From: Podarcis cretensis
Lineage: Eukaryota
NCBI GenBank assembly: GCA_951804945.1
Contig: OX638158.1
Coordinates: 54,498,001 to 54,562,000, forward strand
DNA length: 64,000 bases
Direction: 5' to 3'
Below are positions 4,992-58,304 of the stretch, piece after piece; positions within the stretch are counted from its first letter, which is position 1; each line of letters starts with the position of its first letter. A program made the translations under genes and the position numbers. Below the pieces are notes generated by a model. That model did no database searches and was not told where the DNA came from. It saw only the letters and a program-made list of their open reading frames with translations.

Positions 4992-5892
4992 CATTATCCT
5001 GTTTTGTCTTGTAAAATAGGTGGCAGTTCATGCTAGACCAAATATGTCTCCATTTGCAGAACCATTCATCCATAAACGTGGAGTGGTGGTATCAGCAGGA
5101 GGCCCGATTAGGCCGGCGGAGCCTCCCCGAGGCCTAGTAAGGCCCCCAAAACGCGGTAGGCCTCCCTGCGGCCTAAAAAAGGCCGCCTGGAGGCCACAAA
5201 GGCCCTGGGGGGTGGCCGGGGACCCCCTCCGCCTCCACCCACCACACCCCAGGGGCGCCAGGCCTGGCAGGGAAAGGGGAAGGGGCCGCGTGTGGCTTTG
5301 CCTCCCCCCCCCCGCGGCCCACACGCTCCCGCAGGCATGGGGGGGCAGCCAGAGGGGCCCCCATGCCATCGCCCAGCACCCAGGGAAAAGGATCCCCTTT
5401 TTAAAAAGGGGATCCTGGAATCCATTACCCCCCCTAGCCCTTGGAATCCAATCGCGGGGGGGGGGGGGGGAGGCCAAAGGCCCCAGGCTTACCTTTTGGA
5501 GCAAGGAAGTCCAGCGAGGTCCTTCCAGGAGAAGCTCTGGAGCCAAGTGAGGATTAACAATTAAGATCCACCCTCTATTGTGTGGGCAGGTAATCCCTCC
5601 CCCTACCTGGCCTGGTTTCCCTGGCAACGCTTCCCCCAGGTGGGATTGGACAACTCACTGGGGTAGGCGGGGACCTCCAGGTATCCCACCTGAGGGAAGG
5701 CAAAGCCTATGCTGATGGGGCCACTCCAGATCCAGGGCTGCACGCGTCCCCGCAAAGGGCGCCCCCCGTTTTAAGTGGGGAGCGGTCATTATCCTGTTTT
5801 GTCTTGTAAAATAGGTGGCAGTTCATGCTAGACCAAATATGTCTCCATTTGCAGAACCATTCATCCATAAATGTGGAGTGGTGGTATCAGCA
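4992..5892. repeat. 106-bp direct duplication (4992-5097, 5787-5892) flanking a 689-bp GC-rich insert
   Basis: The two copies are identical except for one C/T at a CpG (5077 vs 5872). The insert is 5098-5786. Confidence 0.95.
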
Positions 5893-56900: not shown

Positions 56901-57784
56901 AGTTCTATATGTGTACCGACCATAGACTCACTGTCATCAAAGGTTTATCTCTCAGCCTCTTCTCCCATTAAACAGAAAAAGTGGATTTTAAACTCTCCTG
57001 AATTTTGGTGCCACAACCTCAAAAGTAAACTCAAGGTAAAAACTACATGCACCGTGGAAATAGTTTTCCTTAAGCATCTTTGATACCAAAGCTACCAAAA
57101 AAGAAAAATACATGTAATATACAATATAAAGTATATAACTCTCTGAGTTTTTAAGGAGCTTAATGCACATTACCTCAGTAATCCTAATAACTCTTTTTAA
57201 TGTAGGTCAGTATTATTTAAATTTGGCAGACTTAGAAACACAACTTCAGCTGACCTTTGGGATAGCTATGAAAAGGGGACAATATAATAATAATAAGTGA
57301 ATGTTCATATGGCACTTTCACACAATAGAGAGCTGAATTTCTGCTCACGTGCTTTTGGTTCTAGACTTTGAGATGTGTTTATGGAGCTTGCCCTCAAAAT
57401 CTGGCTGTTGGGCTAATGTAGCCTCTTAGACAATGATAGAAAGGACCATGGTTCAGTGACACATCACATGCCATGCATCATGCCCCAGGTGCAGTCCTGG
57501 GCATCTCCAGAGGTGTGCGCGAAAGACTGTCTGACACTCGGAAGCATCACTGCCACACTGTTTAGCCAGCAGTGGGAAATCTCTAGCCTAATTAGATCTG
57601 CCAAACTTCCCCATTTGCCCTTTGAAGCCATTTTAAGCAAACCACTCCCACCTGGCCAACATTTGCCAAAATATTTATCATCAGCTGTAGAGCAGATGGT
57701 GTATTTCTTTTTTATTACTATTTTTTTGTTGACACATTTTGTTATTTGATGATAACTTTTTGTGAGGCAGTGGCTAGAACTGTA

Positions 57785-58026
57785 CAGTGGTACCTCAGGT
57801 TACATACGCTTCAGGTTACATACGCTTCAGTTTACAGACTCCGCTAACCCAGAAATAGTGCTTCAGGTTAAGAACTTTGCTTCAGGATGAGAACAGAAGT
57901 CGTGCTCCTGCGGCGCGGCGGCAGCAGGAGGCCCCATTAGCTAAAGTGGTGCTTCAGGTTAAGAACAGTTTCATGTTAAGAACGGACCTCCGGAACGAAT
58001 TAAGTTCGTAACCCGAGGTACCACTG
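57785..58026 (-). mobile_element. Tc1/mariner (Tigger/pogo-like) MITE, copy 3 (inverted relative to copies 1 and 2)
   Basis: TA|cagtggtacctcaggttac ... gtaacccgaggtaccactg|TA. The reverse complement is nearly identical to 27068-27325. Confidence 0.93.
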
Positions 58027-58304
58027 TATGCAATATTCCACATGTGACCACACCACAGATTTATGTAACATAATGTCAGTTTTGGTTGTTTTAATTTCAA
58101 CAACTGCCCTCATTCAGCATGCCTTTTACATCCCTGCTGCTCACTGAGTTTAGGATTTTGTTTAACCCCAAGACTTCTTTCTAGGTTAGTACATCCAGTT
58201 TATATACTTATCCATGTATTTGTATACTCAGGACTTTTTGCCCCAAAGTGTATCCCTTTCTCTTTACTTACATTGAACCTAATTGGCCGTTTCGTTACCT
58301 ACTT

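Follow-up and report, generated by a model that had tools for sequence, protein, structure and literature searches.

What event leaves a GC-rich block of 689 bp between two nearly identical 106-bp copies of the sequence around it? The question is raised by a locus in the window, by which we mean the whole 64,000-nucleotide stretch of Podarcis cretensis DNA analysed here. Comparison of the window sequence with itself bore out the structure described in the first-pass annotation: the direct repeat has one mismatch (C5077/T5872), and the block that it encloses has 65.6% GC and 4.2 CpG per 100 bp, whereas the 2-kb flanks have 38.5% and 40.6% GC and 0.7 and 0.95 CpG per 100 bp (Table 1). That annotation had called the insert foreign and had offered two readings, a real insertion by an unusual route such as polymerase-theta-like repair, and a joint between contig ends that gap-filling had padded with junk. 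FOXP-CC exons lie ~50 and ~66 kb past the window end on the + strand (G000:C10:54612205-54628684), positions of the FOXP coiled-coil exons that fit a FOXP locus, and the element described below is antisense to them. The window also contains, at 27064-27327, 44341-44572 and 57783-58028, three copies of a different dispersed repeat, 82-95% alike and MITE-like, with TACAGTGG-type ends.

A BLAST comparison of the insert with its own genome, which the first-pass annotation had proposed, uncovered a dispersed family: the search gave 49 match rows from the best 40 of 1668 candidates, and exact genome matches number 555 for the 5' 22-mer and 714 for the 3' 23-mer. In window orientation, all 30 fetched loci stop at the same base, followed by CATT. 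As the CA (5787-5788) and the core TT (5789-5790) adjoin the block in 30/30 fetched copies, the element extends to 5788/5790; of the 106 bp, the strict target duplication therefore takes up 104 bp, AA core included, and the other 2 bp match by chance. Longer copies of the family reach 6-8 kb, with ORFs running opposite to the + strand of the window. In the 8022-bp copy L048, A1 (263 bp) is followed by four overlapping ORFs, B1 (~410 bp), A2, a spacer and B2. Comparison of these ORFs with Pfam recovered RVT_1 (E 4e-11) and then, on the same strand, Phage_integrase (E 1e-6); the RNase H-like part is matched by RVT_3 alone (E 0.07), and the ORF downstream of the YR matches Lipase_GDSL_2 (E 5e-7, just under the curated cut-off), as befits a putative SGNH hydrolase, placed as in Ngaro elements of the amphibian type. 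Among Pfam matches at E<=0.1 the four ORFs had none to an APE, RLE or GIY-YIG endonuclease and none to a methyltransferase domain, the lack of which distinguishes Ngaro from PAT and DIRS; the latter result is an absence of match only. The order of the ~8-kb element is A1-gag-RT/RH-YR-SGNH-B1-A2-B2, and the split direct repeats A1-ORFs-B1-A2-B2 are present in 5 of 12 self-aligned copies (L032, L036, L045, L048 and L049), with most of the others stopping at B1. Judged by layout, ORF order and Pfam domains, the family is a Ngaro-type retrotransposon (order DIRS), and the element appears on these grounds to be a new member of a known superfamily. The window insert corresponds to A1 and ~430 bp of the GC-rich 5' region on the minus strand, 3'-truncated and with 97-98% identity to positions 1-623 of L048; what had been taken for foreign DNA is a genuine and recent Ngaro fragment, from the 5' end of a retrotransposon. 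The earlier remark that the block has no TE coding similarity is correct, because the block is the non-coding 5' end of the element and has no TE ORF.

Table 1. Features of the insert and its flanks in the window
Feature	Positions	Strand	Remarks
Target duplication, copy at the truncated end	4992..5097	+	Has C5077, the same base as the empty alleles of four other samples
3-bp microhomology GCA	5095..5097	+	Common to the target and the element continuation at the truncation point
5' fragment of putative Ngaro-type YR retrotransposon	5098..5788	-	3'-truncated ~690 bp into the ~8-kb element; 97-98% identical to full-length copy L048
Structured, non-coding GC-rich stretch that separates A1 from the gag-like ORF	5098..5527	-	First part only
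A1 split direct repeat, 263 bp	5528..5790	-	From self-alignment of copies
Inverted match, 15/19, to the duplication boundary (5079-5097 and 5874-5892)	5710..5728	+	
Inverted copy of the element's B end within A	5746..5755	+	9/10 in the window; pairing with the B|A junction predicted for single-stranded DNA
AATG at the precise junction	5787..5790	-	Includes the invariant crossover core AA (5789-5790)
Target duplication, copy at the intact 5' end	5787..5892	+	Has T5872

Several other identities were considered and set aside. A DIRS1-like element, which would have inverted terminal repeats and an internal complementary region, was rejected on the direct split repeats and on self-alignments that contain no terminal inverted repeats, and the TPRT class (non-LTR or Penelope-like) on the missing endonuclease match, the fixed end being the 5' end, and the absence of a tail. 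An initial reading as a 5'-truncated LINE or Penelope-like element was dropped once the ORFs were seen to run in the opposite direction and to encode RT, YR and SGNH. The block folds strongly (z -4.5 and -5.5, 20 shuffles), but its 12 matches in Rfam all lie far under the gathering scores, and a viroid, ribozyme or structured-RNA identity was abandoned, the block being a TE 5' region; coding capacity was likewise rejected, the open frames being merely GC-rich. The 5' region of the element also contains a perfect 28-bp palindrome (window 5389-5416), which is found in most copies.

The family is diverse in form. Sampled copies are mostly solo A-spacer-B units of ~855 bp (L051-L130, L200-L210), and 8 long copies among L031-L043 stop at B1 without A2-B2; recombination between repeats, or repair after integration of linear cDNA, could account for both forms. 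Short copies in which part of A is fused to part of B, with both termini intact (L057, L082, L119, L179, L183 and L203), are possible products of end-joining of two arms. L032, L033, L045 and L048 have variable tandem arrays at two places, built of ~170-bp units within the GC-rich 5' region and of 112-bp units close to the 3' end, and the full-length copy L038 is split by ~4.7 kb of other sequence containing a 1241-aa open frame. L029 and L030, which lie ~37 kb apart on opposite strands of C7, are an identical truncated insertion with identical flanks, and represent either an inverted segmental duplication or an assembly duplicate.

Reads at the site were compared in 7 of 23 listed runs, with X15 and X16 belonging to one sample (S15). 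The first-pass annotation had proposed that reads be followed over both junctions: an X15 contig bridges the truncated junction, covering 5047-5131 with zero differences, and at the 5' junction X15 and X16 yield a 51-nt contig (21 + 30 letters), which is under the bridging threshold. X17 and X18, other samples with the same species label, skip 795 bp, X1 skips 787 bp, and in X2 and X19 the left flank is joined to a single repeat copy. These empty sites contain one copy of the 106 bp, and the SNP base is C in X17, X18, X1, X2 and X19. The insertion is polymorphic, filled in one individual and empty in four other samples. X15 and X16 may be the assembly's own sample, in which case the junction support is a second data type and not a second individual. 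The depths in X15, 50.5 and 55.5 at the junctions, 121.7 in the repeat and 83-89 in the flanks, suggest that sample S15 is heterozygous. One X16 contig consists of the left flank, one T-bearing copy and the right flank, and reflects either heterozygosity, with T on the empty allele, or collapse of the graph; despite this empty-type contig, the X16 junction depth is 14.2 against 15.4 in the flank. T5872 itself could stem from CpG decay, an allele or a mosaic.

These data bear directly on the possibility of an assembly artefact, in which overlapping contig ends were linked by filler. Such an origin would explain the single SNP between the repeat copies and could draw on the shortness of the 5'-junction contig and on the chance that the insertion-bearing run is the assembly's own sample, but we consider it extremely improbable: 1) the supposed filler is a family member that begins at the exact terminus with the AA core; 2) the X15 contig runs over the truncated junction without a difference; and 3) the same scar, of 14-320 bp, occurs in fifteen other independent copies and one mirror case. 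The gap-filling reading of the first-pass annotation is refuted by the dispersed family with its fixed terminus, by that contig and by the empty alleles.

To place the window copy within its family, the first 100 listed 5' matches were taken, of which 95 were examined (5 were omitted, 3 of them from L037/L038, which had been examined already); 6 of the 95 are internal A2 copies, leaving 89 consecutive insertion 5' ends. Complete copies ending at the B terminus account for 67 of the 89, mostly solo A-spacer-B units of ~855 bp, and 22 are 3'-truncated. A duplication of at least 13 bp is present at 7/22 truncated copies and at 0/67 complete copies (p=2.5e-5). The 22 truncated copies divide into 7 with a duplication of 14-125 bp, 3 with one of 7-9 bp and 12 with none. 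Additional truncated copies picked by BLAST, among which L029 and L030 are one count, have duplications of 22, 23, 38, 64, 66, 71, 106 (the window), 142 and 320 bp; no duplication was found at the BLAST-picked L191, L197 and L198 or at two copies followed by poly-T. Across truncated copies the duplications range from 14 to 320 bp, in fifteen independent copies besides the window one plus one mirror case, and the long ones copy the flank of the intact end as far as the AA core. Complete copies have the short AA core only, and a target change of 0 is the leading estimate in 5/8 of those lying within other repeats. A flank comparison for target deletion in truncated copies without duplication gave +22 for L060 from one subject, in conflict with this copy's own 9-bp duplication, and the cases with 7-9 bp are therefore weaker. 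Some of the 12 duplication-free truncated copies, whose empty sites were not seen, may be later deletions. The long duplication is a trait of this Ngaro family, and probably a recurrent by-product of incomplete integration.

The two ends of these copies differ in kind. At complete copies AA alone is invariant, the next base being A, T or C in 31, 21 and 3 of 55; in L051-L130 the -2 position is a purine in 72/78 sites, and A or T comes right after AA in 52/55. Truncated junctions have 0-7 bp of microhomology or filler. The mean microhomology at 14 filler-free junctions is 2.2 bp against 0.74 expected, a value inflated by taking the best over many family copies; L055 and L013 have filler copied from the flank, and the computed filler of L019, L024 and L030 may reflect mere divergence from the library copies. 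The suggestion in the first-pass annotation of a real insertion involving polymerase-theta-like repair holds in outline, with 3 bp of microhomology at this site and microhomology or filler at other copies, and fails in treating the element as unclassifiable. Truncation points fall at 199-263, the end of A, in 17/22 copies, an interval picked after seeing the data (150-263 gives 18/22), and the window copy, truncated at ~690, lies outside this cluster. Nested insertions were rejected as the cause of truncation, as none of 20/20 sampled 3'-truncated copies has a downstream remainder. A snap-back pairing between the start of the duplication and the element was rejected as a general rule, with 15/19 positions in the window, 14/19 in L022 and none in the other 13/15; the inverted match at 5710-5728 may have helped to set the duplication boundary at the window site, and is not family-general.

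The symmetry of truncation was assessed with 60 regions for 3' ends that had no matched 5' end, 59 of them with the motif. Thirteen apparent 5' truncations were found, of which 8 were kept after removal of 4 nested insertions and the ambiguous L187; one, L158, has a mirror scar: the copy is 5'-truncated, ends at B and is accompanied by 75 bp duplicated from the right flank. Per end, truncation is more frequent on the 3' side (22/89 vs 8/~96, ~96 being the terminal B ends counted in the first 100 listed; p=0.003), and so are long duplications (7/89 vs 1/~96; p=0.03); per truncated copy, polarity is not significant (7/20 vs 1/8, p=0.37).

The precise end of the truncated copies has the same AA core as complete copies and is therefore most likely made by the recombinase, and the truncated end has the marks of microhomology-primed repair. 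We consider it probable that the 106-bp duplication beside this real, polymorphic, 3'-truncated 5' Ngaro fragment is the scar of a one-ended YR integration, in which the 5' end was joined and the other end was healed by host repair. The substrate would be an unfinished plus-strand cDNA, at least partly single-stranded, on whose B|A junction the recombinase would carry out a single strand exchange. The A side would become a 3' flap, ending usually near the end of A (at or before 263) and sometimes, as in the window copy, in the GC-rich region. Upstream of the cut, this flap would find 1-7 bp of microhomology on the intact target strand or the sister chromatid, anneal there and prime synthesis through the site, giving the second copy of the 106 bp, and the B side would be lost by trimming. 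Synthesis can be primed from a 3' flap and not from a 5' flap, which would produce the polarity, and stalling of the plus strand where A2 no longer matches the template would produce the cluster at or before 263; for the window copy, synthesis would have gone ~430 bp further, into the structured GC-rich region. On the plus strand, a predicted stem at the B|A junction pairs the B end with its inverted copy in A, a modest signal (z -2.04, 6/200 shuffles) that was not seen in shorter 65-nt windows of this junction; position 5750 is A in most reads, which makes the inverted copy (5746-5755) 10/10. The variable lengths of the duplications, unlike a fixed staggered cut, support the one-ended model, and the accessible parts of PMC7192593 describe DIRS-1 cDNA as mostly linear and single-stranded. 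Weighing against the model are the 12/22 truncated copies that have no duplication, the position of the window breakpoint outside the cluster, the mirror case L158, the modest fold and the fact that no intermediate has been observed; further, C5077/T5872, if they represent two haplotypes, could favour repair from the homolog.

Repair from the homolog would start with a clean complete insertion. A break would later arise within this hemizygous element, and synthesis primed by microhomology on the empty homolog would mend it, deleting the 3' part and copying the target. The final structure would be identical, the mirror case L158 would find a place, and the C/T difference could be two alleles, the T-bearing empty-type contig of X16 standing against C in the empty sites of other samples; the T sits at a CpG, however, where deamination is an explanation too, and the X16 contig may have arisen by collapse of the graph. 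We hold this history unlikely, as breakpoints should then be scattered along the 855-bp solo or the 8-kb element, in contrast to the 17/22 found at the end of A, and polarity should be symmetric, in contrast to 7/89 against 1/~96. A precise end opposite a variable one, together with a duplication of varying length, also has a non-LTR-like look and would be expected from target-primed synthesis. In that route plus-strand synthesis, templated by minus-strand cDNA, would start from a nick at AA, and a LINE-like long TSD, as in R9 or Dualen, would come from a second nick at a distance of 14-320 bp. Tyrosine recombinases leave a 3'-phosphotyrosine and not a 3'-OH, which speaks against priming by the YR; with the four L048 ORFs devoid of a match to an APE, RLE or GIY-YIG domain, complete copies free of TSDs and no natural stop at the end of A, we regard this route as quite improbable, even with long TSDs on record (median 900 bp for Dualen-4b and 126 bp for R9 in the accessible text of PMC9977147; see also PMC8557442).

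How the one-ended model relates to known systems can be judged from the portions of the cited reports available to us. The hydrolase-bearing Ngaro layout is that of L048 (PMC9210276, PMC4157794). The Xenopus DIRS-53_XT-type Ngaro shares the A1-ORFs-B1-A2-B2 arrangement, the order gag-like, RT/RH, YR and SGNH, and the lack of a methyltransferase match, and differs in repeat size, with A of 236 and B of 152 there against 263 bp and ~410 bp in the window family (PMC9210276); for that type we found no description of target duplications such as the 14-320 bp ones at our truncated copies. Solo AB copies are likewise known from the Cafeteria Ngaro (PMC8547959). The DIRS-1 integration model similarly has a short circle-junction core, which matches the target and remains at both ends, as AA does in the window family, but it needs a complete double-stranded circle and yields no long duplication (PMC7192593), whereas in our sample roughly one copy in four is one-ended. 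The LINEs R9 and Dualen-4b also surround an insertion that has one fixed end with a long duplication, but use an endonuclease and TPRT; the window family has a fixed 5' end, a YR, no tail and complete copies without TSD (PMC9977147). A literature search that included the accessible parts of PMC8547959, PMC3783388, PMC13465315, PMC9210276 and PMC7192593 and lacked two core reviews returned no account of truncated YR retrotransposons with long duplications, which is not proof of absence; the present analysis contributes the family-level duplication counts and the empty alleles.

Integration of YR retrotransposons is still mostly a model, and YR specificity has not yet been investigated experimentally according to the available part of PMC7192593. 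With its hundreds of copies, and with failed products that have long duplications and a fixed stop, this young family leads to testable predictions on the strand, its single-strandedness and the transfer point. Integron attC sites and CTX-phi, bacterial DNA elements without RT, integrate as folded single strands by one strand exchange, which host replication or repair then resolves. The window family may work likewise, by analogy only and not as a member of these systems. It is conceivable, though we propose it tentatively, that Ngaro integrates in the same manner from a folded single-stranded plus-strand cDNA via a single strand exchange; truncated copies with duplications of 14-320 bp would then record, like fossils, plus-strand intermediates that were left unfinished, with 3' ends accumulating at the end of A as the strand-transfer point. 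In a reptile assembly, a long duplication around a GC-rich fragment need not mean a mis-join, and the presence of a TSD does not exclude a YR element. If true, the folded-single-strand reading would chart a step of Ngaro replication that has so far escaped observation, and Ngaro would be a source of tandem duplications in its host.
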